Shown here one piece after another: positions 17,879 to 30,265 of a DNA stretch of 30,265 nt (position 1 is the first letter of the stretch; the number at the start of each line of letters is the position of its first letter). The DNA comes from a virus (Duplodnaviria > Caudoviricetes). The notes beneath the pieces were generated by a model. That model saw only the letters and a program-made list of their open reading frames with translations. It was not told where the DNA came from and searched no databases. The stretch spans positions 1 to 30,265 of IMG/VR virus record IMGVR_UViG_3300005590_000064, one strand, 5' to 3'. Position numbers and translations under genes: made by a program.

Positions 17879-20407
17879 ATGGCAGGGCGCGGGCGTCTGA
17901 TCCAGACCAATTTTTCAGGCGGCGAGCTGTCCAAGGCGGCACGCGGCCGACCGGATACGAATGTCTGGTCAGGCGGGCTGGAGATCAACCGGAATTGTGT
18001 CACGCGCCCGGCCGGGGCAAGTGACCGGCGCGGGGGGGCGGCCTATCTTGGGGATGCCAAGGCAGGCGCTGGAGACAAGAAATGGTTTGTCCTGCGCAAA
18101 GGCATTAATGACATTGTGCGGATCGAAGCGGGTGCCTACAGGTTTCGGTTCTGGGATGGCATGACCCGTCAATTGATTACATCCGGGGGCAGTCCGGTAG
18201 AGGTCGTCATTCCCTGGAGCAATGGCGAGTTGCAAGGCCTGCGCTGCTCACAGCAGGGGGATGTGCTCTGGTTCAGTCATGTGGGCCATGGCTATCCTAC
18301 CAAGGCACTGAAGCGCACCTCCCCCACCAGTTTTTCCCTGGTCGATGTTGACTATCTGGAGGGGCCTTTCAAAACGCTGCAAAGCAATGCACCGCTTCTG
18401 ACATTTGGGGCTTCTTCCGGATCCGGCGTCAGCTGCGGCGCGGCGTCCTCTTTGTTCAGTGCGGACATGGTGGGATCCCTGATCCGTGTCGAGGCTACGA
18501 CAATGCCGGATGTTGCCAGCTGGACATTTGATGTCCCGACCGAGCTGGGCGATTATTGCCGGAACGGAAACCGGATCTATGAATGCACGGACCGCGGTGA
18601 CCCCTTCAAGACCGGCAACAGTCCGCCGGTGCATGAAGCGGGAGCGTACTGGGACGGCACCTTCCGCGACAACATCCAGTGGACCTTTCGTGGGTATACG
18701 TATGGTCTTGCGGAGATTACGGGCTATACCAGCCCGACCAGCGTTACGGTCAAAATCCTGCAGCGCCTGCCATTCTATGGGGCGGCAAGCAAAACAAGCG
18801 ATGTTTACTATCTGGGGGCCCTGTCAGATGCAGAGGGCTGGCCGGCTGCGACGACGATCTTCGAGGACCGGTTCTGTGCCTTCGGCAGCGCTACCGATCC
18901 GGCGCGTTGCTTCCTCGGGCGCACCGAGTTGTACACGCCGGAAACCGCTGACATGCGGCCCGGTTTTGCGACCGAAACGCTGGATACGGATGCGGTGCGC
19001 CGGTCGCTCGCTGAAGGGGAGACGGCTCATATTGTCTGGGCCATGGTCATGGATGGTCTTTTGCTGGGTACGACAGTGGGGGTGCGCCAGCTGACAGGGC
19101 CGTCGGCGGATGAAGGGATTACGCCGGCCGGAGCTGTTCCGCGTACGGTAACTGAAATTCCCTGCAGCCCGGATCTTCCTGGTATCAAGGCTGATAATGC
19201 CCTGATCTATTCGGCGGTGGGAAACCAGGAGCTGATCGAGGTGAGCCGTCAGCGGGATGCCATACCGCGCAATTTGCTGGAACTGGCCGAGCATCTCACA
19301 GATGGGGGTATTCAGTCTTATTGCTGGCAGGGGCGGCCTGCCCGGATCCTGTGGGTCGTGACAGATCGCGGCCGCCTGCGTTCGCTGACCTATTCGCCGG
19401 AAAATGACACTTATGCCTGGGCTCCGCATCCGCTGGGAGGATCTTATGAGGGGCGCGAGCCCTGGGTGGATGATGTGTGTTCCGCGCCGGGCCCTGATGG
19501 GCGCGATGAAGTCTGGCTGATTGTCGCGCGGACAGTGAACGGGGCGACCTTGCGAACGGTGGAATATATCACGCGGCGGTTCGATCAGCATGTCATGCGT
19601 GTTGAAGACGCCTGCTGTCTTGATGCGGCCGCCTATGTGGATCTCTGGCAAGGGTACACGGCCTATGTCGAGGATCTGGGGGAGGGGCGCGTACAGCTGT
19701 CTGCCGGCTCCGGCCCGTTTGTGGCTGGGGATGTCGATCGGGAATTCTGGTTGACGGGGAATGGCAGCACATATGACCGTGCCGATGAGAAGATGCCTGT
19801 CAGGGTGTCCATAGACACAGTCGTCAGTGCAACGATTGCCGAGGCCTCCCTTATCGGGGGGTATGATGAAAGCCTCTGGAAGAACCGCACACTGCGCATT
19901 GCGCGGCCAACCAGATCCATAGGGGCTCTTGACTGGCTTGAGGGTGAGGAGGTCATGGTCAATGCAGACGGCCGGGCCTTTGGGCCTTTCACGGTTGCTT
20001 CCGGAGTGATCACGCTGACCGATAGCGCCGGCGGCGATGTCTGGATGGCCAGAGGCTGGATCGGTCTTGCCTATGAAAGTCTCCGCAGGTCATTGCCTGT
20101 CAATGGCGGGGAGGGGCTGGGATCTTCGCTGGGAGCGATGGGGCGGATCTCCGGTCTGACCGTGCTGACGGATGGTGTTGCCGAGGGGCGCGTGAAGCTG
20201 GTGGATCAGCCGGATGATTATGCCATTCCGCTGAACTGGCAGTTTGCCGAGGATCCATTGGGGCAAGCGCCTGATGCGGAAAGCAACGATCGCTGGCTGG
20301 ACCTTGAAACCGGCTATGACCGCGACAAGCAGATCGAGGTGATTGCAGATGGTCCGCTGCCCTGTTCCCTGACCGGCTTTGTCCTGAAGGTGGAGAGTTA
20401 TGGGTGA
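17879..20407 (+). CDS. Tail tubular protein B / nozzle (T7 gp12-like)
   Basis: QTNFSGGELS N-terminus, GWPA...FEDRF, LDWLEGEEV.V.ADG, PLPCSL C-terminus; 842 aa. Confidence 0.9.
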   Translation: MAGRGRLIQTNFSGGELSKAARGRPDTNVWSGGLEINRNCVTRPAGASDRRGGAAYLGDAKAGAGDKKWFVLRKGINDIVRIEAGAYRFRFWDGMTRQLITSGGSPVEVVIPWSNGELQGLRCSQQGDVLWFSHVGHGYPTKALKRTSPTSFSLVDVDYLEGPFKTLQSNAPLLTFGASSGSGVSCGAASSLFSADMVGSLIRVEATTMPDVASWTFDVPTELGDYCRNGNRIYECTDRGDPFKTGNSPPVHEAGAYWDGTFRDNIQWTFRGYTYGLAEITGYTSPTSVTVKILQRLPFYGAASKTSDVYYLGALSDAEGWPAATTIFEDRFCAFGSATDPARCFLGRTELYTPETADMRPGFATETLDTDAVRRSLAEGETAHIVWAMVMDGLLLGTTVGVRQLTGPSADEGITPAGAVPRTVTEIPCSPDLPGIKADNALIYSAVGNQELIEVSRQRDAIPRNLLELAEHLTDGGIQSYCWQGRPARILWVVTDRGRLRSLTYSPENDTYAWAPHPLGGSYEGREPWVDDVCSAPGPDGRDEVWLIVARTVNGATLRTVEYITRRFDQHVMRVEDACCLDAAAYVDLWQGYTAYVEDLGEGRVQLSAGSGPFVAGDVDREFWLTGNGSTYDRADEKMPVRVSIDTVVSATIAEASLIGGYDESLWKNRTLRIARPTRSIGALDWLEGEEVMVNADGRAFGPFTVASGVITLTDSAGGDVWMARGWIGLAYESLRRSLPVNGGEGLGSSLGAMGRISGLTVLTDGVAEGRVKLVDQPDDYAIPLNWQFAEDPLGQAPDAESNDRWLDLETGYDRDKQIEVIADGPLPCSLTGFVLKVESYG

Positions 20408-20849
20408 GTTCCGCGCGATTGCCCAGGTGGCTGATGTTCATATCTGTGAGGCACTGGCGCAACGTGTGGCGGCCGAGTTCGGCAAGGACTGGCCGGGGCT
20501 GCGGTTCAAGGGCGATGCCTGGGCCTATGTCGATGGCGGCCAGGCGCGGGGGATTGGTGGCATAGAGCCGGTCTGGAAAGGCCGGTATGTGCTCTGGTCC
20601 TATGTCAGCGAATTGTCAGTGGGGGACTGGCGCCGTGTGCTGAGGTTCACCCGGTTGCGGCTGCAGCGCGCTCTGGCCCAGCCGGACGTGAACCGCGTCG
20701 AGGCGACGGCCTTGCTGACCCATCCGCGCTATTGCCGCTTCCTGGAGCGGCTCGGCTTTCTGGCGGAAGGGATGCTGCTGAATTATTCACCGAAGGGTGA
20801 AGACATGATGATGTACTCGCGCGTTCCCGGAGGGGAGCCATCGGCATGA
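20400..20849 (+). CDS. GNAT-fold protein, T7 gp13-like
   Basis: GIGGI..W.G..VLW and RFLERLGFLAEG motifs; position after the nozzle gene. Confidence 0.75.
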   Translation: MGEFRAIAQVADVHICEALAQRVAAEFGKDWPGLRFKGDAWAYVDGGQARGIGGIEPVWKGRYVLWSYVSELSVGDWRRVLRFTRLRLQRALAQPDVNRVEATALLTHPRYCRFLERLGFLAEGMLLNYSPKGEDMMMYSRVPGGEPSA

Positions 20850-21331
20850 GTGGGTTTGAAATGCTGCTGGTCGCGCAAGCGGCGGGGACTGTCCTGCAGA
20901 CGGCCGGCGCGATGGTCGATGCGGAAACCGATAGCAAGATCGCGCGCAACAATGCCATCCAGACGCGGGCAGAAAGTGTCGAGGAGGCGGGGCTGCTTTC
21001 GGCCGAAGGGCGTCGGCGAAGTGCTGCCGCGAAAGTGCGGGCGGCCAGTTCCGGCCTGTCGCTGGACGGGTCTGCGCTGGATGTGATCGGGGAGCTGGAG
21101 GCCGAAGGAGAGTACCGTGCACGGACGGCCCTGCATGAAGGGCGCGTCCGGTATGACGGATACCGCGCTGAGCAGAAGAATGCCAAGAGCCGCAAGACAA
21201 CAAGTGCCGTGATCGGGGCGTCGCAACTCGGAGCCACCATGCTGACGGCCGGCATGAATTTCGGGAGCACGTCGGGATCATCCGCCGCCCTTCATGCGGG
21301 TGGCAAGGCAAACACGCTGGGAGGGCTCTGA
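20846..21331 (+). CDS. Small internal virion (ejection) protein, T7 gp14-like
   Basis: Ala/Gly-rich with hydrophobic ends; AASSGLSLDGSALDV motif; synteny. Confidence 0.8.
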   Translation: MSGFEMLLVAQAAGTVLQTAGAMVDAETDSKIARNNAIQTRAESVEEAGLLSAEGRRRSAAAKVRAASSGLSLDGSALDVIGELEAEGEYRARTALHEGRVRYDGYRAEQKNAKSRKTTSAVIGASQLGATMLTAGMNFGSTSGSSAALHAGGKANTLGGL

Positions 21332-23733
21332 TGCCGGTAAGAATTGATGCAGGCCGGTCGCGTGTTTCGGCTCCCAGGACGGGCGGTGTTGTCATTCGTG
21401 GCACGACAGGTGGCAGCAATGCGCGCGCCATCGGCAGCACCTTGTCTGACTTTGCAGATGGTCAGCTGCAACAAATCCGCGCTGAGCGTGCGGCCGAGCA
21501 GGCGGCTGCGGATCAGATCGATATTGCAAAAACCTCCAGCGCCGCGCGGCTTGAGTGGCAGAAGCGCCTGAATGACGAGCTGGATGCCTATGACGGGGCG
21601 GAGCCGGGATTTACGGAGAATTTCACCACGAGTTTCCGGCAGGATGCCGAGGCGCGGCTGGCTGGCCTCAATCCGCGCATTCGTCAGGCCGTCGAGCTGG
21701 ATCTTGTGCAATTTGGCGAGCGCCTGACGGCTGGGGCCATCGAGGGCGCGCGCGGCAAGCGCCAGGCCTATGTGATGCGCGGCCTGCGCGAGACGCTGGA
21801 CACGGAAGCGGAAGCCCTGCTGGCCTCACCCATGGATCTGGCGAGCGCGCTGGAAGGCCTGGAGCCGCTGACGGAAGCCGCCCCGGCGGCGTTGCGCGAC
21901 AAGTTCCGGGAGGAAGCGCGCGCGCAGCTGGCCAGCGCCTATGTTGACGGGCTGTTGCGCGATGATCCTTCCGAACTGCATTACCAGCTGGAAGCTGGCA
22001 TGCTGGACAGCGTGCTGGATGCAAAGCAGAAGGCCCAGCTGCAATCGACCGTATCGGGAACGATTGCGCGCCAGGCCAAGGCGGCGGAACAGGCGGCCCA
22101 TGCACGTCGTCGTGAAGAAGAAGGGGCTGCCAAGGATCTGGTTGCGCGGGTAGTTGCCTATGAGGGGGCAGGTCTTGCTGCCCCGCCGGATCTGCTGCAG
22201 GCGGCGCGGGATGCTGCGATCGGGATCACGGATCCCGGCCTGATCGAGAAGATGGAGCTGGCCAGCTACAAGCGCCGGACCAGAGGCAGTGGCGGGTCCA
22301 AAACGGCCAAACAGTCACTCGACGTGCTGGAGAAGACGCTTGAGGCAGGCCTTGCGCCGGCTCCGGAAATGATTGCGCGGGCGCGTGCTGACGTCGAGGC
22401 GTCCGGAACGGATGCGCTCTATCAGCGTCTCAACGATATTGCGGCGGCGCAGGAGATCCGGCAGGAGGCCGCGCTGATGCCAAAGGCCGATCTTGCCGCG
22501 CGCCTTGCGGAGATCCGGTCCGGCACGGTGACGGAAGAAGGGCTGAAGGAATTCCGTATCCTCAACAAGGTGGCCGCGCAGCGCGAGCGGATGGGCGGGG
22601 ATGACAATGTGGGCTGGGCCGAACAAAATGGCCTGGTCCTGCAGCAGCTGGATCTTGGCTCTGAAACGCTGGCGGGGGATTTATCCCGCCGCGTACTGCA
22701 GGCGGAAGCGCTGGCCGAGATGACCGGCGAAAAGCTGCAGGTTTTTTCGAAGGTCGAGCGCGCGCGGTTTGGCGAGGCGCTGGATGCCCTGCCGGCGGAT
22801 CAGCAGGCGGACATGCTGGCGCGGCTGACTGTTGGGGCGGGCGGCCGCTCCGGCGCCGTCATCCGCGAGCTGGCGGCGAAAAACCCTGTTTATGGACAGG
22901 CTGGATATCTGACGGCAACCGGGCGGGGAGATACCGCCCTGGCCGCGCTGCAGGGGGCAAAGCTGCTGAAGGAGCGTCCGGATCTCTTGCCGAGATCCAA
23001 GGCGGTGTTTTCCGAAGTCGAGAATGCCTATTTCGGAAACGCCATTCCTGCGGCGCGTCTGGATGTGCGCAAGGGCATTACCGACATGGCGCGGGCGATC
23101 TATGCCGGAGATCTCGCCCGTGAGGGCAAGGGGGCAAAGGATTTCGATGCGGATGAGTATCAAGCGGCCCTGCAACGCGCAGCCGGACAAAGCGGAGTGA
23201 CGGGCGGCATTGGCGACGTTGGCCGGGGGCGCATCCAGCTGCCGGCGCATATGACAGCCGATCAGGTAGAAGGGCTCGTCAAGTCGGCCGAAATCGAGGA
23301 CTGGGCCGCCTGGTCGCTTGGCGGTGTTTCCATGCCCTCCGTGATCGGAGAAAATGGCATGCAGCCGGTCGATGCGCGGTTCCTGAAGAAGTCCTATCTG
23401 ATCAGTGTGGGCGAGGGGCGTTATCAGGTGAGCCTGACAGATCCGCGTTTTGGCGCGCAATATGTTCTGGATGGGGACAGCTCACCAGACGCGCCACGCC
23501 CGTTCGTGCTTGACCTCAGTCAGGTTGACCCGGCCGTTGTGCATCAGCGCTTCGCGGCGTCCGCTGCGCAGGCGCGTGTGCGGGCGAGGACCGCCCCGAA
23601 GGCGCAGGACTGGGGCCGTGACGATCCGCGTTACCAGGACTATCTGAAGCAGCAAAGTGACAAGAAACCCATGAGTTGGGGGCGTGATGATCCGCGCTAC
23701 AAAGACTATCTGAAGAAGCAGGCGGACGACTGA
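21331..23733 (+). CDS. Internal virion (ejection) protein, gp15-like (800 aa)
   Basis: All-helical, Ala-rich, no Cys; TGATG coupling at both ends; synteny. Confidence 0.78.
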   Translation: MPVRIDAGRSRVSAPRTGGVVIRGTTGGSNARAIGSTLSDFADGQLQQIRAERAAEQAAADQIDIAKTSSAARLEWQKRLNDELDAYDGAEPGFTENFTTSFRQDAEARLAGLNPRIRQAVELDLVQFGERLTAGAIEGARGKRQAYVMRGLRETLDTEAEALLASPMDLASALEGLEPLTEAAPAALRDKFREEARAQLASAYVDGLLRDDPSELHYQLEAGMLDSVLDAKQKAQLQSTVSGTIARQAKAAEQAAHARRREEEGAAKDLVARVVAYEGAGLAAPPDLLQAARDAAIGITDPGLIEKMELASYKRRTRGSGGSKTAKQSLDVLEKTLEAGLAPAPEMIARARADVEASGTDALYQRLNDIAAAQEIRQEAALMPKADLAARLAEIRSGTVTEEGLKEFRILNKVAAQRERMGGDDNVGWAEQNGLVLQQLDLGSETLAGDLSRRVLQAEALAEMTGEKLQVFSKVERARFGEALDALPADQQADMLARLTVGAGGRSGAVIRELAAKNPVYGQAGYLTATGRGDTALAALQGAKLLKERPDLLPRSKAVFSEVENAYFGNAIPAARLDVRKGITDMARAIYAGDLAREGKGAKDFDADEYQAALQRAAGQSGVTGGIGDVGRGRIQLPAHMTADQVEGLVKSAEIEDWAAWSLGGVSMPSVIGENGMQPVDARFLKKSYLISVGEGRYQVSLTDPRFGAQYVLDGDSSPDAPRPFVLDLSQVDPAVVHQRFAASAAQARVRARTAPKAQDWGRDDPRYQDYLKQQSDKKPMSWGRDDPRYKDYLKKQADD
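23611..23721 (+). repeat. Intragenic duplication encoding WGRDDPRY(Q/K)DYLK(Q/K)Q twice
   Basis: Copies at 23611-23655 and 23677-23721, 66-nt period. Confidence 0.9.
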
Positions 23734-26700
23734 TGGGGGAATTCCTGGAGCCTGATGATCTGATGCCGGATTTTGTTCCGGCGCGTGCGGACGTGCTGCC
23801 GGACCCGAGTGCCGGGGACATTTTCGGGGCCAGTATGGAAGCCATGCGGGCGACGGATCTGACCAGTTCGGAAGCCGAAAATCAGGGCCGGGCCTTTGGC
23901 GAGATCTGGGACGGCATGCTGCAGTCTTTCGATGGTGATGCTGCGGCCATGTCAGAGGCACTGCAGGCCCAGCAGCCGCCAGCGTTGGCAGGCCTGGATG
24001 CAGAGCAAAGGGCGCGTCTCTCCGTCGGGATGGCGTATGACCTGGCCCAGCTGGAGCGTATCAGGGCCTATCGCAACAGTTTGCCGCCCGAGCAGCGTGA
24101 GACCATACCGGACCCCGACCGGCTGGAAGCGCGCGCAAGAGAGATTGCCCTGCAGCGCTATACGGAAGCCGAGGCGGTGATGAGCCAGGCGCGCGGTTTC
24201 GGAGAGGGCGCAGCCAAGTTCGGGGGCGGTATGGCCGGGGCGATGACGGACCCGGTGAATATCGCGGCGATGATGATCTTCAAACGGCCGCTGACGACGT
24301 TCCGGGGCGCGGTGGCCTATGGCGCGGTCACGTCCGGGGCGACCGAATTGGTGCTGCAGCCCGTCGTGCAGGACTATCGCGCCGAAGTCGGCCTGCCGGC
24401 CGGCTGGGATATCGGCTTTCAGAATGTGCTCTATGCGACGCTGGGCGGGGCTGTATTCGGCGCGGGCGAGGGCGGGCTGATCAAGCTGGGGCAGGCCCTG
24501 GACGCGCGCACGCGACAGGGCGTGGCCACGAATGTTGATTTGCAGGTGAAGGAGATTGTCGACCGCTATGCGGCGGGCAATCTGGATGCTGAAGGGGTGA
24601 AGGAGGAATTTGCCGCCCTGGCGCAGCGCGACCCGGCCTTTGCGGCCGCCATCGAGATTTCCGAACGCACGGCGGCGGCCGAAGCGGCGCTGGAGGAAAA
24701 TCCGTTCGGGCTCTCGCCTGAAGCGATGGAGGCGCACAATGCGCGCCAGATTGCCGGCCTGGCGGACCTCGCGCCCGAGATCGATCCGGAGCTGCGGCCG
24801 GAAGATGTTGCCCCGGCAGATCTGCCGCCGGCCCCGGCCGTGGCCGGCGCGGAGATTCCGCAGGCCTGGCAGGATATGGGGCTGGAGATTGTGGACTATG
24901 GATCGCTCGCCCGTGATCCTGACCGGTTCCAGTTCAAGGAAAGCGACCAGGACGGGGTGACGGATGCCTTGCGCGATGTTGAGGCCTGGGAGCCCGAACG
25001 CGCGGGCGTGCTGCTGGTCTGGGAAGCGACGGACGGCACGCGCTATGTGGCCAATGGCCATCAGCGCCATGCCCTTGCCGATCGGCTGACATCTGCCGGG
25101 GCAGACCCGATCAGCGGCCCGGCTTTCATCCTGCGGGAAAATGAGGGCGTGACCGCCGAAGCGGCCATGGTGCGCGGAGCCCTGATCAATATTGCCGAAG
25201 GATCAGGCACCAGCCTTGATGCAGCGCGGATCCTGCGGGCCGATGCGGATGCGGGCGCTACCCTGCCGCCCAGGTCGCCGCTTGTGAAAGAGGCCAAAGG
25301 CATCTCCCGCCTGTCTGATGAGGCCTTCGGGCTGGTGGTCAATGAAAAGATCAGTCCCCGCTGGGGCGCGCTTGTCGGGGCGCGGGTCGAGGATCCGGCC
25401 CTGCAATCGCAAATCGGCCTGGCGCTGCAGGGTGTGGATCCGCGCACGCTGACCGAAGCGGAGTCGATCATTCAGGATCTGCTGACTGTTCCGGTTGTCG
25501 AAGGCAGGACAGCCGATCTGTTCGGGGAAGCGGATTTCAAGCAGGCCCTGATTGCCGAGCGGGCAAAGGCCAAGGCGGCCGCCCTGCGTCTTCTGAGCCG
25601 GGACAAGCGGACCTTCGGCACGCTGACAAAGGAATTCCAGAATATCGAGGCCGAAGGGAACAGACTGGACCCGGCGGCCAATCGTGAGGTAGAACAGCAG
25701 GCCGCCCGTCTGAAAGAGCGGATTGAAAGGGAAGCCCATGTCAAAGGCGAAATCTCGGATGCCCTCTCCGACGCAGCCCGGTCCATCTCCGAAGGTGAGC
25801 CGGTCGAAGCGGCTGCAAGACGCCTTGTCCAGTCTCTCACCGGGCGAGCTGAAGGCGGCGGCCAGCGACGCAGCGCTGATGCGGGCGGCGACGGCGCGGA
25901 TCCAGCTGAAGGCGCAACAGCGGGCCGACGCGGAGCGAACCGGCTTGGTACCGGGCTCGCTGACCTCCTAAAGCGGCAGGGCGACGGCACCGAGCGGGTC
26001 ATAGCGGCCTATGCCGATGCCGAGGATTTCGGCCAGTCGGCCTTTGATCTGATCACAAAAGGCAAGGCACCGGATGCAAGCCCGGCGGCTGCAAACCGGC
26101 TGGCGTCAGCGGCCGTGAAGTGGCGCGGCAAGGTGTACAAGGGCAAGAACCATGGCGATGCCGTGCGCGCGGCCGAGGCGGCCAGCGGCGAGACGATTGC
26201 CGGCATTTCTGGCGGGCAGGGGGAAGCGGTCGCAGGCTTTGTCGATGCGCGGGGAAAATTCCTGTCCCGCACGGATGCGGCCCTGTCGGCCCTTGCCAGC
26301 GGGCAGGTGACGGATCCGGCCGTGCGGCGCGTCATCGAGGCCCGGATCAAACGCGGCGAGGACGTCCCGTTGACCACGGAACATGTCGATTTTTCCGCAG
26401 AAGGCGGACGGTTTACGAAAGCGTCCAGCCTGGGGCATCCGGGTTGGGATGCGGCACGTCGGGCCGGCATCGATCTGTCTCCGCAAGCGCGTCTGAAGCG
26501 CGCCGGTGAGATGGGGTTCAATACGGATGAAATGTTGTTTCATGGGACGAGCCGCGAGTTTGAAGCGTTCGATGCGAATGCCGCGAAGGTTTCCTCCTCT
26601 GACCAGGAAAGCGGTATCTTCTTTACGCCCCGCGCGCTCACGGCGGATCAGTTTGCCAGGTATGCCTCATCAGAGGAGGGAGGGTCCGGCAAGGAAATTG

Positions 26701-28013
26701 TCATGCCCGTGTTCGTTCGCGGAACGCTGCGGACAGTCACGAAAGATGAGTATTATAACAATCTGAAAAAGCTGGGGTGGTCTGATGAAGACATGCGCGA
26801 CGGCATGCTTTACGAGCCGCTTCTGTTCGCAAAAGTCATTAATGAAGCCAAAGCGCTAGACTATGACGGGGTGCGTTTTGTCGGTGTGAAAGAAACCAGG
26901 TTTGGTTTTCCAGCTGATCAGGTTGTTATCTTTGACCCAAAGAATATCCGGTCCATAAACGCCGTATTCAATCCGAAGTTTGATGGATCTGCCGATATTC
27001 TAGCGGCCAAATCGTCCACTACGCACCTCGCGCCCAGTGAGCTGGCGCGGATGGATACGCTTTTCGTCAAGGATGATGCGGCGCAGATCTCGCGTGCCCT
27101 GGCCGAGGCTGCCGCGTGTGCAGGAGGTGTACCAATGGCTGGCATGGGACAGATGGTGGCCGGATCGGCCGTCGGGCTGGGAGTGGGGCTTGGCCTTGCC
27201 GGGATGGCGATGACCTACGGAACCGAGCAGCAGCGGGATGATCGCTGGGAAGAATGGTTCCAGACGGATCCGGACATGGAATTCGAACGGGAAGTGCGGG
27301 CCGAATATGAGCAATTGAAGGCGGAACGGGTCGAGCAACGCGCTGCCGCCTTGTGGCGTGTGCAGTTGCAGCGGGCGACAGGGGAGGCGTTCCGTGAAGA
27401 TATCGGCCGGCTTCCTGCCTATATGAGCCAGATGCAATATAATACGTGGGCGGAACGGTTCACAGGTGTGGCGGCCGCTTTTCTGGATGACATGATCGGT
27501 CATGAAAGCGATGGTGACTGGCAGGCAAAAGCGCCGACCAGTTCGGCAACCGGCGGTGCGCAATTCATCGCCTCGACCTGGCGCAAGATGATGAAGGAAT
27601 ACGGCCCGCAATACGGGCTGACCCTGGACCCGTATTCGGCCGATGCGGATGAGCGCCAGCGTGTTCTGGAGCTGCGAACAGATCCGCGCTGGGGCACAGT
27701 GATGGCCGCCCTGTTTGCCAAGGACAATGCGATCTGGTTGCAGTCGCGCCTCGGGCGGCCAGCCACCCAAAAGGATGCCTATCTTGCGCACTTCCTGGGC
27801 CGTGATGCCGCGCTGAAAATGCTGAAGGCCGCGCCGGATGCCAAGGCTCCGGATTTGTTCCCGACGGAAGCGAAGGCCAATCCCAATGTGTTCTATCATG
27901 GCGGCAACATGACCCGGCCGCGTAGCGTGAAAGAGGTCATAGCCCGGCAGACGTCCGGCTTTTCCGGTGATCCCCTGTTCATTCATCCTGACGTGGCGGA
28001 GGGGCGGACATGA
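23733..28013 (+). CDS. Polyvalent ejection protein: membrane region, ParB/Srx-like domain, unknown domain, ADP-ribosyltransferase (ART-PolyVal-like), TM, lytic transglycosylase
   Basis: GVLLVWE..YVANGHQR (ParB-like); FHGT..GIFFT..VMPVFVR..YDGV..VIFDPKNIRS (ART); HES..SSATGGAQFIASTW..AYLAHFLG (SLT-type transglycosylase). Confidence 0.85.
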   Translation: MGEFLEPDDLMPDFVPARADVLPDPSAGDIFGASMEAMRATDLTSSEAENQGRAFGEIWDGMLQSFDGDAAAMSEALQAQQPPALAGLDAEQRARLSVGMAYDLAQLERIRAYRNSLPPEQRETIPDPDRLEARAREIALQRYTEAEAVMSQARGFGEGAAKFGGGMAGAMTDPVNIAAMMIFKRPLTTFRGAVAYGAVTSGATELVLQPVVQDYRAEVGLPAGWDIGFQNVLYATLGGAVFGAGEGGLIKLGQALDARTRQGVATNVDLQVKEIVDRYAAGNLDAEGVKEEFAALAQRDPAFAAAIEISERTAAAEAALEENPFGLSPEAMEAHNARQIAGLADLAPEIDPELRPEDVAPADLPPAPAVAGAEIPQAWQDMGLEIVDYGSLARDPDRFQFKESDQDGVTDALRDVEAWEPERAGVLLVWEATDGTRYVANGHQRHALADRLTSAGADPISGPAFILRENEGVTAEAAMVRGALINIAEGSGTSLDAARILRADADAGATLPPRSPLVKEAKGISRLSDEAFGLVVNEKISPRWGALVGARVEDPALQSQIGLALQGVDPRTLTEAESIIQDLLTVPVVEGRTADLFGEADFKQALIAERAKAKAAALRLLSRDKRTFGTLTKEFQNIEAEGNRLDPAANREVEQQAARLKERIEREAHVKGEISDALSDAARSISEGEPVEAAARRLVQSLTGRAEGGGQRRSADAGGDGADPAEGATAGRRGANRLGTGLADLLKRQGDGTERVIAAYADAEDFGQSAFDLITKGKAPDASPAAANRLASAAVKWRGKVYKGKNHGDAVRAAEAASGETIAGISGGQGEAVAGFVDARGKFLSRTDAALSALASGQVTDPAVRRVIEARIKRGEDVPLTTEHVDFSAEGGRFTKASSLGHPGWDAARRAGIDLSPQARLKRAGEMGFNTDEMLFHGTSREFEAFDANAAKVSSSDQESGIFFTPRALTADQFARYASSEEGGSGKEIVMPVFVRGTLRTVTKDEYYNNLKKLGWSDEDMRDGMLYEPLLFAKVINEAKALDYDGVRFVGVKETRFGFPADQVVIFDPKNIRSINAVFNPKFDGSADILAAKSSTTHLAPSELARMDTLFVKDDAAQISRALAEAAACAGGVPMAGMGQMVAGSAVGLGVGLGLAGMAMTYGTEQQRDDRWEEWFQTDPDMEFEREVRAEYEQLKAERVEQRAAALWRVQLQRATGEAFREDIGRLPAYMSQMQYNTWAERFTGVAAAFLDDMIGHESDGDWQAKAPTSSATGGAQFIASTWRKMMKEYGPQYGLTLDPYSADADERQRVLELRTDPRWGTVMAALFAKDNAIWLQSRLGRPATQKDAYLAHFLGRDAALKMLKAAPDAKAPDLFPTEAKANPNVFYHGGNMTRPRSVKEVIARQTSGFSGDPLFIHPDVAEGRT

Positions 28014-29317
28014 CGCCGGACTGCCGGGTTCGCGTGGCGCGGGCGCTGGGCCGTGATTTGAGTGATGCCGAAGCCGGTGAACTGGACGCGAGGCTCGCCC
28101 GGTCCGAGCGGTATTTGAGAAAGAATGACCCTGAGTTTGGCGGGCTGGACCGCAAAGGCCAGTTGGCCCGCGCGGCGGATCATGCCAGCGGCCTGCTGCA
28201 GGCTGAGGCTGACGGGCTTGTGCGAAGCTATGATATCGGCTTCCGGCTAAGGGAGGCCGGCCGGGATGCGCTGGGGGCTGATTTCGACGCCCTGGAGCGA
28301 TCCGGCCGTGTCACGATGATGGACCGGGCCAGCGACCTGCCGCAATACCGTAATGGCGTTCATGATGATGCGCTGGCCGTCACGCTGGATGATGGGCGTG
28401 TCGTCATGTTCCGGGACCGGATGAGCCCCGAAGCCGTGCCGGAAATCCTGCTGCACGAGGTTGGCGTGCATGCCGGCATGGAAGGCTATCTGGGCAGGCA
28501 GGGCTGGCTGGATCTGAAACAGCAGGCGGCGGACATGCTGGCGGCGGGCGATGAGGCGGCCCTGCAGGCCGCTGCGAGGGTTCCGGGCGATACGTCGCCT
28601 GCGCATTATCTGGAAGAAGTGATTGCCCATTGGGTGCAATTCGGGCCAGCCAGGGACCAGCTGGTCAAGACGGCCATGGGGAAGATGCGCGCCTGGATTT
28701 ATCGCCATATTCCCTGGGTGCGCGGGCGCGTGAGCCTGACGCATGCGATGCTGAAGGAGCTGGCCCAGGGCGCGCTGCGCCGTGAGACACGGCAGGCGCG
28801 GAAACTGGTGCGCCAGGGAGACGGTCCGCTGGCGAGTGTGCCGGCCGACGGGCAGGGGCGGTTTGCAAAATCTACCTCCCGCGTTTTGCCCTTTGAGGAA
28901 TTTTCCGCAGAGATGCGCGCCATCCGCGATGACTGGGCTGATGACGAGATTGCGCGCGCCTATGATCTGCATCGCATGATCATGAGCGTTGGCTCTGGCG
29001 AGGCCGGGCGTGTGGCCCCGTCCGCGCGGCCGCAGGAGGCGCGCGAACCTGTGCCGGATCAGGGACTGCAGGCGATGGCCGAAGATGCGCTGGAAGCGCG
29101 CGGGGGAGCCGGGACGGATCTGATTGCCGACAGCGATGCGCTGGAGGCGCGGTTGCGTGAGGATATCGAGGCGAGCGGCGCAGATCCTGAAGCCGCGCAA
29201 ATCACTCATCCTGACACGAATGAAACTGTGGCGGTAAAGCAGGTTCTGGATGAACTGGACCGTGAGCGGTCCATTCTGGAGCGCCTGCGCGGCTGTGCCT
29301 ATCCGGGAGGGGCATGA
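28010..29317 (+). CDS. Ejection-cluster protein with a zincin-like metallopeptidase domain (polyvalent-protein type)
   Basis: ILLHEVGVHAG (HExxxH variant) and downstream LEEVIAH; GGAGG SD and ATGA coupling at both ends. Confidence 0.8.
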   Translation: MTPDCRVRVARALGRDLSDAEAGELDARLARSERYLRKNDPEFGGLDRKGQLARAADHASGLLQAEADGLVRSYDIGFRLREAGRDALGADFDALERSGRVTMMDRASDLPQYRNGVHDDALAVTLDDGRVVMFRDRMSPEAVPEILLHEVGVHAGMEGYLGRQGWLDLKQQAADMLAAGDEAALQAAARVPGDTSPAHYLEEVIAHWVQFGPARDQLVKTAMGKMRAWIYRHIPWVRGRVSLTHAMLKELAQGALRRETRQARKLVRQGDGPLASVPADGQGRFAKSTSRVLPFEEFSAEMRAIRDDWADDEIARAYDLHRMIMSVGSGEAGRVAPSARPQEAREPVPDQGLQAMAEDALEARGGAGTDLIADSDALEARLREDIEASGADPEAAQITHPDTNETVAVKQVLDELDRERSILERLRGCAYPGGA

Positions 29318-30265
29318 TGAGCTTTAAGGATTGTATCGACAATGGCGAAGCCGAAGGCGTGATCCCGCCGGACCGGGCAAAGCAATTGCGGGAAGAATAT
29401 GGGCGGCGGCGTGACAGCTATCGTGACCTGTTCGGGGAGGATGCCGACCGGCTGGCCGCTGAGCACACATTTGACGCGCTGGAAGCCGAAGCGGCGCGTC
29501 AGCGGAAAGTGAAGGTTCTTACCATCCGCGCGCAGCAAAAGCTGGCCTTCGACATGCGCAGCTTTCGGGACGAGTTGGGTCGCGAAGACATGAAACAGGC
29601 TGGCCTTGCCCTGCTGGACTCGACCGTGTTTCAGGGCGGCATCGAGGGGGCCGACGCGCGGTATAAATCCCTGCGCGGACATTTTCACCGCATGATCCCG
29701 GAAGCCCTGCAGAAATTCACGACCAGGCTGACCGGCCAGCGCCGCAACCAGGCAGATATCGACAGGATGACCGATGCGCTGTTTTCCGGCGAGTTCGGCA
29801 AGGATGTGGCGGGTGAGCTGGCGAAGGCCGTGCACGACGCCATGGAAAAGGCGCGTCAGATGTTCAATGCGGCGGGGGGCTCCATTCCCAAACTGGAACG
29901 CTACGGCGTGCCGCAGGCCCATAGTGAGACCCGAATTCTGGAAGCCGGCTATGAGGCCTGGCGGGATTTCCTGCTGCCGCTGCTCGACCGGCGGCGGATG
30001 CTGAGCCATGCGACCGGGCAACCGCTTTCGGATGCCGAGCTGGAGCTGGCGCTGCATGATGTCTTTGAGGCAATGCGGACCGATGGCTGGTCGCGCAAAT
30101 CGGCTTCGGACGCAATACGGGGAACCTCCCTGGCAAACCGTCGGACCGATCACCGTTTCCTGCATTTCAAGGACGGGCCAGCCTGGCGGACGTATCAGGA
30201 GCGTTTTGGCGATGGGGATGCCTGGTCAGCCGTGCTGGGCTATCTGGACGGCATGGCGCGCGACA
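29314..30265 (+). CDS. Large internal virion (ejection) protein, gp16-like, 3'-truncated; not in the ORF track
   Basis: Hand-translated open frame from ATG 29314 (MMSFKDCIDNGEAEG...) to the window end; FNAAGGSIPKLERYGVPQAH and HRFLHFKDGPAWRTYQERFG motifs; GGAGG SD. Confidence 0.85.
   Translation, partial: MMSFKDCIDNGEAEGVIPPDRAKQLREEYGRRRDSYRDLFGEDADRLAAEHTFDALEAEAARQRKVKVLTIRAQQKLAFDMRSFRDELGREDMKQAGLALLDSTVFQGGIEGADARYKSLRGHFHRMIPEALQKFTTRLTGQRRNQADIDRMTDALFSGEFGKDVAGELAKAVHDAMEKARQMFNAAGGSIPKLERYGVPQAHSETRILEAGYEAWRDFLLPLLDRRRMLSHATGQPLSDAELELALHDVFEAMRTDGWSRKSASDAIRGTSLANRRTDHRFLHFKDGPAWRTYQERFGDGDAWSAVLGYLDGMARD

Follow-up and report, generated by a model that had tools for sequence, protein, structure and literature searches.

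The stretch of viral DNA considered here, positions 1 to 30,265 of IMG/VR record IMGVR_UViG_3300005590_000064 (Duplodnaviria, Caudoviricetes; 30,265 nucleotides, hereafter the window), carries what its sequence relationships identify as an epsilon15-like podophage ejection operon, the last three proteins of which contain four cysteines between them. We consider it probable that these four residues form two helix-to-head disulfide clasps that would re-join one large ejection protein made as three pieces of 1426, 435 and 818 amino acids (aa), the counterpart of which is encoded in relatives as two genes or as one. C429 of the 435-aa protein would pair with C7 of the 818-aa protein (the outer pair) and C1129 of the 1426-aa protein with C5 of the 435-aa protein (the inner pair), a pairing drawn from the matching of head and tail subtypes and from a weak complex model. 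One instance of such a bond has already been published, in cyanophage A4; what appears to be new here is the conservation of a terminal cysteine pair across a family, its absence from naturally fused proteins and the likely presence of a second clasp. The parts concerned are as follows.

23733..28013, + strand: piece 1, the N-terminal part, a gp16-like polyvalent protein of 1426 aa with Cys1129 as its sole cysteine
26532..26960, + strand: ART-PolyVal domain in piece 1 (PF18760, E 4.3e-12)
27030..27131, + strand: inner tail, a likely helix whose end is Cys1129 (codon 27117-27119)
27156..27212, + strand: Gly-rich hydrophobic segment, residues 1142-1160 of piece 1
27450..27938, + strand: phiKZ gp144-like lytic transglycosylase in piece 1 (phmmer to 3bkh/9xps, E 2.5e-23)
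28010..29317, + strand: piece 2, a head-peptidase-tail protein of 435 aa
28010..28213, + strand: inner head of piece 2, with Cys5 (28022-28024; phrog_684 positions 1-69, E 2.1e-5)
28262..28804, + strand: zincin-like metallopeptidase (MPTase) domain of piece 2, H149-E150-H154 (28454-28471) and E202/E203
29210..29299, + strand: outer tail of piece 2, the gp16 C-terminal helix, whose end is Cys429 (29294-29296)
29314..30265, leaving the window, + strand: piece 3, gp17-like (IVP-D-like), its outer head bearing the sole Cys7 (29332-29334; phrog_684, E 4.2e-50)

Translation of the ejection cluster gives no cysteine in the 161-aa and 800-aa proteins, one in the 1426-aa protein (C1129), two in the 435-aa protein (C5 and C429) and one in the last open reading frame (ORF; C7), in agreement with the original prediction, which had counted four cysteines only, at 27117, 28022, 29294 and 29332. 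The gene for piece 3 is still open at the window end, with 317 codons visible, and a longer contig of identical sequence (L001) shows its product to be 818 aa long, with C7 still the only cysteine. Four cysteines in 3640 aa compare with 33.7 expected at the rate of 15 other window proteins (48 in 5192 aa; Poisson P 1.5e-10), and three of the four would lie 10 residues or fewer from a terminus by chance with a probability of 8e-5. The depletion is by itself unremarkable, the median cysteine count being 0 among 148 related polyvalent proteins (taken from the best 150 of 904 clusters that match a profile of the 435-aa family at E<=0.001, two alignment members being left out). Since low cysteine content is common in such proteins, the weight rests on the position and conservation of the residues. 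It had been proposed that all four sit at module ends, and this is so for C5, C429 and C7, which lie near termini; C1129 is internal, with 297 residues (the hydrophobic segment and the transglycosylase) beyond it. All four were found to be conserved in homologues, a check which had been suggested at the outset, although the "DC" put forward as a head motif was not, only its cysteine being invariant in the alignments.

The outer pair belongs to a family-wide pattern, with epsilon15/phiV10/BcepC6B/VP2-type operons carrying an identical terminal cysteine pair. Conservation was assessed in 197 loci, excluding the A4 genome, from a family that we estimate at about 2,000 stored viral stretches. A gp17-like gene is present in 192 of these loci, and 183 of them have both cysteines, one 4-7 residues from where gp17 starts and the other among the final 16 residues that the upstream gene encodes; the other nine comprise six that are cut at the 5' end, two with fewer than 200 bases upstream and one orphan (L052), so that the pair is present in 183/184 loci with enough DNA. 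As 80 of the loci are 84-100% identical to phiV10 gp17, redundancy was removed at 80% head identity, which left 72; in these the head cysteine always lies at positions 4-7 of the gp17-like protein (72/72) and is the sole cysteine in 71, and the tail cysteine is the sole cysteine in 69. Alignments of 11, 63 and 7 sequences with 27-45% identity show no variation at the head cysteine, and in aligned heads it is never replaced by Ser or Ala (63/63, 7/7 and 11/11). A sample of 401 genomes that was not selected for cysteines yielded five new loci; the pair is present in four of these, and the fifth has an orphan gp17. In the window itself the C429 region matches a tail profile hidden Markov model (HMM) built without this phage (E 1.6e-10), and in the model of the 435-aa protein C429 stands at the end of a helix of residues 409-430.

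In eight of the loci (L002, L003, L006, L088, L104, L106, L189 and L193) the gp16 tail and the gp17 head are separated by 250-1900 bases, which in L002 and L088 at least contain an unrelated ORF; the cysteine pair is retained, and the gp16/gp17 junction therefore tolerates insertions. Orphan gp17-like genes that keep the head cysteine with no gp16 gene upstream were seen in L052 (6977-9292) and L229 (9232-11847; G311:C11). Both are small elements with integrase-like and replication-like genes, as labelled from reading the sequences, and are possibly satellites that dock on the tail of a helper phage.

It was observed that epsilon15-like gp16 and gp17 are encoded by separate genes in some cases and fused in a single protein in others. 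A gp17 domain is found at the end of 37 of the 148 peptidase-bearing proteins, and in 30 of these 37 the gp16 N-terminal core can be detected as well. A cysteine at the junction, from 120 residues before to 40 after its estimated position, is found in none of the 37; 30 have no cysteine at all, and together they have 12 in 70,037 aa. By comparison 31 of 35 unfused gp16-core proteins have cysteine (24 terminal and 7 internal), 30 of them exactly one, with none in the remaining four. The nominal Fisher P for fused versus unfused proteins is 2e-16, a figure that overstates the difference as the fusions may be few lineages. Because the separate forms have cysteines on their facing ends and the fusions have none, these sequences suggest that the terminal cysteine pair likely replaces a peptide bond.

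Virion assembly takes place in a reducing cytoplasm, and it may be asked whether the ends dock without any disulfide, the cysteines serving instead in metal binding, as a small residue at a tight helix crossing, or in another reaction such as with a host thiol oxidoreductase. The setting of assembly favours such a role, as does the unproven homology to A4. However, each partner has one cysteine, which is never Ser or Ala in the aligned heads and is missing from the fusions, and because of these three features a one-to-one covalent link fits; furthermore A4 has a disulfide at the equivalent position. We therefore regard a role other than a disulfide as distinctly unlikely.

In cyanophage A4 a disulfide between gp27 Cys1715 and gp26 Cys5 has been resolved by cryo-EM, with the C-terminal helix lying in a cleft (PMC12002296; PDB 9K2V), and in the available part of that paper the bond is reported as stabilising, with no discussion of its conservation or of fused forms. 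The proposal that a tail-head system of this kind was undescribed thus fell, its basic disulfide having already been solved in A4. The likeness extends to an equal gene order of four ejection proteins, a sole cysteine with which the penultimate protein's long C-terminal helix ends, and a cysteine at residue 5 of the last. C1715 and C5 are the sole cysteines of A4 gp27 (1717 aa) and gp26 (1114 aa), and both terminal cysteines are present in 5/5 A4-family phages examined, one of which has two further cysteines in gp26. The difference is that A4 has one clasp and this phage has two. By analogy, the cysteine link in the window would work like the A4 clasp, although homology to the A4 proteins is not established by sequence or fold. 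One further locus, L230 (9194-11899), has a divergent gp17-like head whose first few residues resemble the start of A4 gp26, a stretch too short to serve as evidence.

Two of the pieces to be joined are parts of a gp16 homologue, which upstream of gp17 is present in the window as two pieces, with the core in the 1426-aa ORF and the family tail in the 435-aa ORF. Piece 1 is matched by 54 of the 72 family gp16-like proteins (phmmer), mostly over residues ~100-730, and piece 3 matches the phiV10 gp17-like protein (tblastn E 4e-18; 27-28% identity). The key relative is P0048, an unsplit chain of 1801 aa with one terminal cysteine. Its identity is 52% over residues 24-732 of the 1426-aa ORF and, in the 435-aa ORF, 46% over the peptidase and 38% over the C-terminal (tail) part. 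As P0048 holds core, peptidase and tail in one chain, pieces 1 and 2 can be taken as one gp16, and this sequence evidence makes the 435-aa protein the C-terminal half of gp16, split off and bearing a gp17 head of epsilon15 type as its cap.

It had been thought that the 435-aa protein was extra cargo slotted into the chain, and a foreign gene that came with a head and a tail and landed between an intact gp16 and an intact gp17 gene would account for the presence of both modules on one protein. Furthermore, HExxH or HExxxH is found in 0/70 unsplit gp16 of the fetched loci, and L202 has another peptidase between similar ends. Such an origin is nevertheless very unlikely given that the single chain of P0048 unites the window's gp16 core with its peptidase and tail; the 435 tail fits the lineage of its own phage, and it is the head and the upstream cysteine helix that look imported together. 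What was inserted would then be an internal junction.

The peptidase itself carries HExxxH rather than the HExxH first reported. H149, E150, H154, E202 and E203 are invariant in 11/11 homologues of the 435-aa protein, and the motif is present in 143/148 of the relatives. In the model of the protein, strands 101-104, 121-125 and 131-134 are followed by a helix, 140-154, that carries the motif; the model gives a weak match to the zincin 3e11 (Z 5.0), the best Z in a VIA structure comparison was 6.2 with no clear fold, and Foldseek returned no match at E<=0.001 for the models of the 435-aa or the 818-aa protein. By sequence the domain agrees with the HExxxH MPTases known from polyvalent proteins and is a predicted peptidase. 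An MPTase profile iterated from L202 drifted to unrelated gp16 segments and was discarded.

Turning to the inner pair, C5 and C429 are invariant in 11/11 full-length homologues of the 435-aa protein (the window protein included), and C1129 is the sole cysteine in 20 of 22 homologues of 1004-1817 aa, the other two (P0031 and P0033) being without both the cysteine and the helix. The middle cargo varies among the 22 and includes ART, zeta toxin, LPD22, LPD23 and HTH. The 435 head scores 24-47 bits against the epsilon15-type head HMM in 11/11 (hhalign 98.9%) and has no positive score against the marine-type head HMM, the type of its own phage's gp17; the sequence of the inner head thus marks it as a copy of an epsilon15-type gp17 N-terminus. 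The 435 tail scores 18-38 bits against the marine-type tail HMM in 11/11. Both heads, and the tail with C429, have homologues among the docking ends found throughout the family, which bears out that much of the idea of paired docking modules; the C1129 tail has no HMM match.

For this reason it may be that only the outer clasp, C429-C7, is a true tail-head link and that C1129 and C5 are otherwise engaged, in C1129-C1129 homodimers, in a C5-C429 ring, or with pieces 1 and 2 competing for the 818-aa head. No significant match links the C1129 helix to the tails of the family, and the complex score for C1129 with C5 is weak and comes without contacts. Set against this, the 435 protein has an epsilon15-type head and a marine-type tail, whereas head and tail subtypes agree in 72/72 two-gene loci (60 and 12), a concordance scored leave-in and confounded by descent. 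Furthermore, a gene with the cysteine helix and transglycosylase is followed by a headed middle gene in 6/6 distinct readable loci (the window, L093, L098, L099, L201 and L202), the sequence in L093 and L098 being cut so that the middle gene ends before the tail. The cassette is the same in L202 even though this locus has a different peptidase, a different gp17 head and a gp16 N-terminus without BLAST similarity. There are also bridging proteins with internal epsilon15-type tails: nine gp16-like proteins (P0110, P0121, P0128, P0138, P0139, P0152, P0158, P0165 and P0176) have a clear epsilon15-type tail (97% hhalign), its cysteine followed by an extension of 128-260 aa that opens with a hydrophobic segment, and in P0165, P0037 and P0104 the sequence past the tail runs into the same transglycosylase. 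A restriction to the outer clasp therefore seems fairly unlikely.

Complex prediction gives weak support to the docking of C1129 with C5. Residues 1-95 of the 435-aa protein with residues 1092-1136 of the 1426-aa protein reached an ipSAE of 0.55, against 0.01 for the best of three controls, with contact agreement of at least 74% and a partner pLDDT of at least 60. The mark applied to such scores is reached by 116/157 solved and 2/215 mismatched pairs, and at or below 0.60 there are only 18 solved pairs together with both mismatches. The suggestion that tail and head peptides be modelled together was thus followed for this one pair, which passed weakly; the Cys-Cys distance that had also been called for was not returned. 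As a plain epsilon15-type tail C1129 was unconfirmed by HMM and by direct hhalign (1.5%). With the bridging proteins and a broad tail profile as its only support, the C1129 helix is probably an eroded epsilon15-type gp16 tail: hhalign aligns it cysteine to cysteine, and of 66 windows compared with the marine and broad profiles it is the top-ranked one.

Directly after C1129 (27121-27137) there is a GGAGG 7 nt before the ATG of M1135. An internal start here, giving a separate product of hydrophobic segment and transglycosylase, was set aside because the Met is found in one homologue subgroup only and is missing from several homologues. A search for proteins of 239-762 aa with the 435 head found only the 435-aa protein itself, though it was insensitive and also missed known homologues; no loci of the 435 family were found in GTDB genomes, and no locus was found for P0023.

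Several points weigh against two clasps joining three pieces. The bond is inferred, as a disulfide has been seen in no member of this family. The C1129 helix is unmatched by either tail HMM (best 3.4 bits), its hhalign probability against the tail profiles is only 3.5-15% (15% for the broad profile), and its window is not top-ranked against the epsilon15-type profile. The complex prediction returned neither contacts nor a Cys-Cys distance, the subtype concordance has the limits of scoring and descent given above, and 0/37 fusions need not represent 37 independent events. The segment and transglycosylase past C1129 would make the chain branched and not linear. Finally, HMM searches for homology to A4 gp26 and gp27 found nothing, the best hhalign probability in this comparison being 1.2% with two weak colinear segments, and the structural match to A4 chain 9k2v_E (VIA) has a Z of 5.2 over 86 residues.

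If two clasps are nevertheless formed, as we favour, the tail helix would dock on the helical head while the virion is being assembled in a reducing cytoplasm and, to judge from A4, the docking would be locked by oxidation in the released virion. The second clasp may have arisen when an epsilon15-type gp16/gp17 junction, comprising the tail cysteine, the hydrophobic segment, the transglycosylase, the stop and the gp17 head, entered a marine-type gp16 gene by recombination, within its cargo region. This transplanted junction probably split the gene and supplied the second clasp, and in such an origin the split would be tolerated because the insert brought its own clasp; the gain would be a free C-terminus bearing a wall-lytic enzyme. 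Most speculatively, with covalent continuity the pieces might thread through the tail as if they were a single polypeptide such as T7 gp16, and the peptidase piece may be set free on reduction in the host cytoplasm.

The remaining genes of the operon are consistent with its assignment as epsilon15-like. Matches to phrog_376, 308, 418, 992 and 684 occur in that order in the window, and the gene order is that of phiV10 (nozzle, IVP-A, IVP-B, gp15, gp16, gp17), with terminase, portal, capsid and adaptor genes further upstream, before the nozzle.

17879..20407, + strand: tail nozzle (tubular tail B), a context gene (phrog_376, E 8.8e-111)
20400..20849, + strand: IVP-A-like gene (phrog_308, E 2.3e-4)
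20846..21331, + strand: small IVP-B-like ejection protein, 161 aa, no cysteine (phrog_418, E 3.4e-14)
21331..23733, + strand: epsilon15 gp15-like ejection protein, 800 aa, no cysteine (phrog_992, E 4.8e-17)

The T7 counterpart of the IVP-A-like gene is described as a non-ejected assembly factor, in what is an analogy only (available text of PMC4819975), and phrog_992 is the family annotated "head protein" at the equivalent phiV10 position. The C-terminus of the 800-aa protein has two copies of a short motif of ~13 residues, of which there is none at the ends of the relatives inspected. Residues 1142-1160 have the top 19-residue hydropathy of the 1426-aa protein (1.67), with a hydrophobic character that is conserved in homologues, and this segment is a possible membrane-inserting helix. 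NCBIfam has no family for four proteins of this phage.

The gp15-gp16-gp17 operons of epsilon15, phiV10, BcepC6B and VP2 are syntenic with and homologous to that in the window (phrog_992 and phrog_684), which differs in having gp16 as two genes, an extra head, an internal cysteine helix and polyvalent cargo (ART, peptidase and transglycosylase). Hardies et al. assigned epsilon15 gp17 to an extended T7 IVP-D family; in the same text, so far as available, epsilon15 gp15 and gp16 are IVP-C candidates and the tail-bearing protein of Pf-WMP3 is an IVP-D (PMC4819975), which leaves the mapping of epsilon15 proteins to IVPs unsettled. For the model of the 818-aa protein (pLDDT 83.6) the top match among 48,161 chains is residues 564-997 of the PhiM1 ejectosome, 8vb2_A (Z 8.1, root-mean-square deviation 5.8, 245 aligned), a Z within the helical-protein background, and a PDB sequence search with the protein and its alignment gave nothing significant. 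T7 gp16 and the tetrameric ejection protein of PhiM1 differ in being single chains. The polyvalent proteins of Iyer et al. (PMC5512222) are large virion-borne proteins that likewise have HExxxH-variant MPTase, ART, ParB-like and lysozyme domains; in the available text these are fused in one chain with proposed autoproteolysis, and are not pieces re-linked by terminal cysteines.

Within the full-text literature, with few subscription papers and no supplements, no account was found of the conservation of the pair in epsilon15-like phages, its absence from fusions or a second clasp. Neither "cysteine" nor "disulfide" occurs in the main texts of PMC8954989, PMC4819975, PMC5512222, PMC11440229, PMC12391199 and PMC10386132 or in the available text of two preprints (10.64898/2026.06.25.734500 and 10.64898/2026.02.16.706137). 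The A4 supplement contains alignments that are possibly relevant to conservation. No use was made of a Klebsiella screen that gave dsbA hits, which deals with other phage families.

It is an open question how the several ejection proteins of a podophage are kept together and made to travel in order through its narrow tail, and what gp16 and gp17 do in epsilon15 is poorly defined. The cysteines offer a two-residue handle, one per partner, family-wide and missing where the genes are fused. A bond known from a single cyanophage structure is thereby extended to a likely family-wide device, and the window suggests that a second clasp can be acquired. More tentatively, and as a speculation that may well not hold, the lone-cysteine clasp could serve podophage ejection machines generally as a portable replacement for a peptide bond, which would allow encoding by one, two or three genes, fix chain order through subtypes that do not cross-react, be transferred as a stop/start cassette and release cargo on reduction in the host cytoplasm, with satellite-like elements bearing an orphan gp17 possibly plugging into a helper tail. 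The finding also suggests a natural route for attaching proteins to the ejectosome and for their delivery into bacteria.

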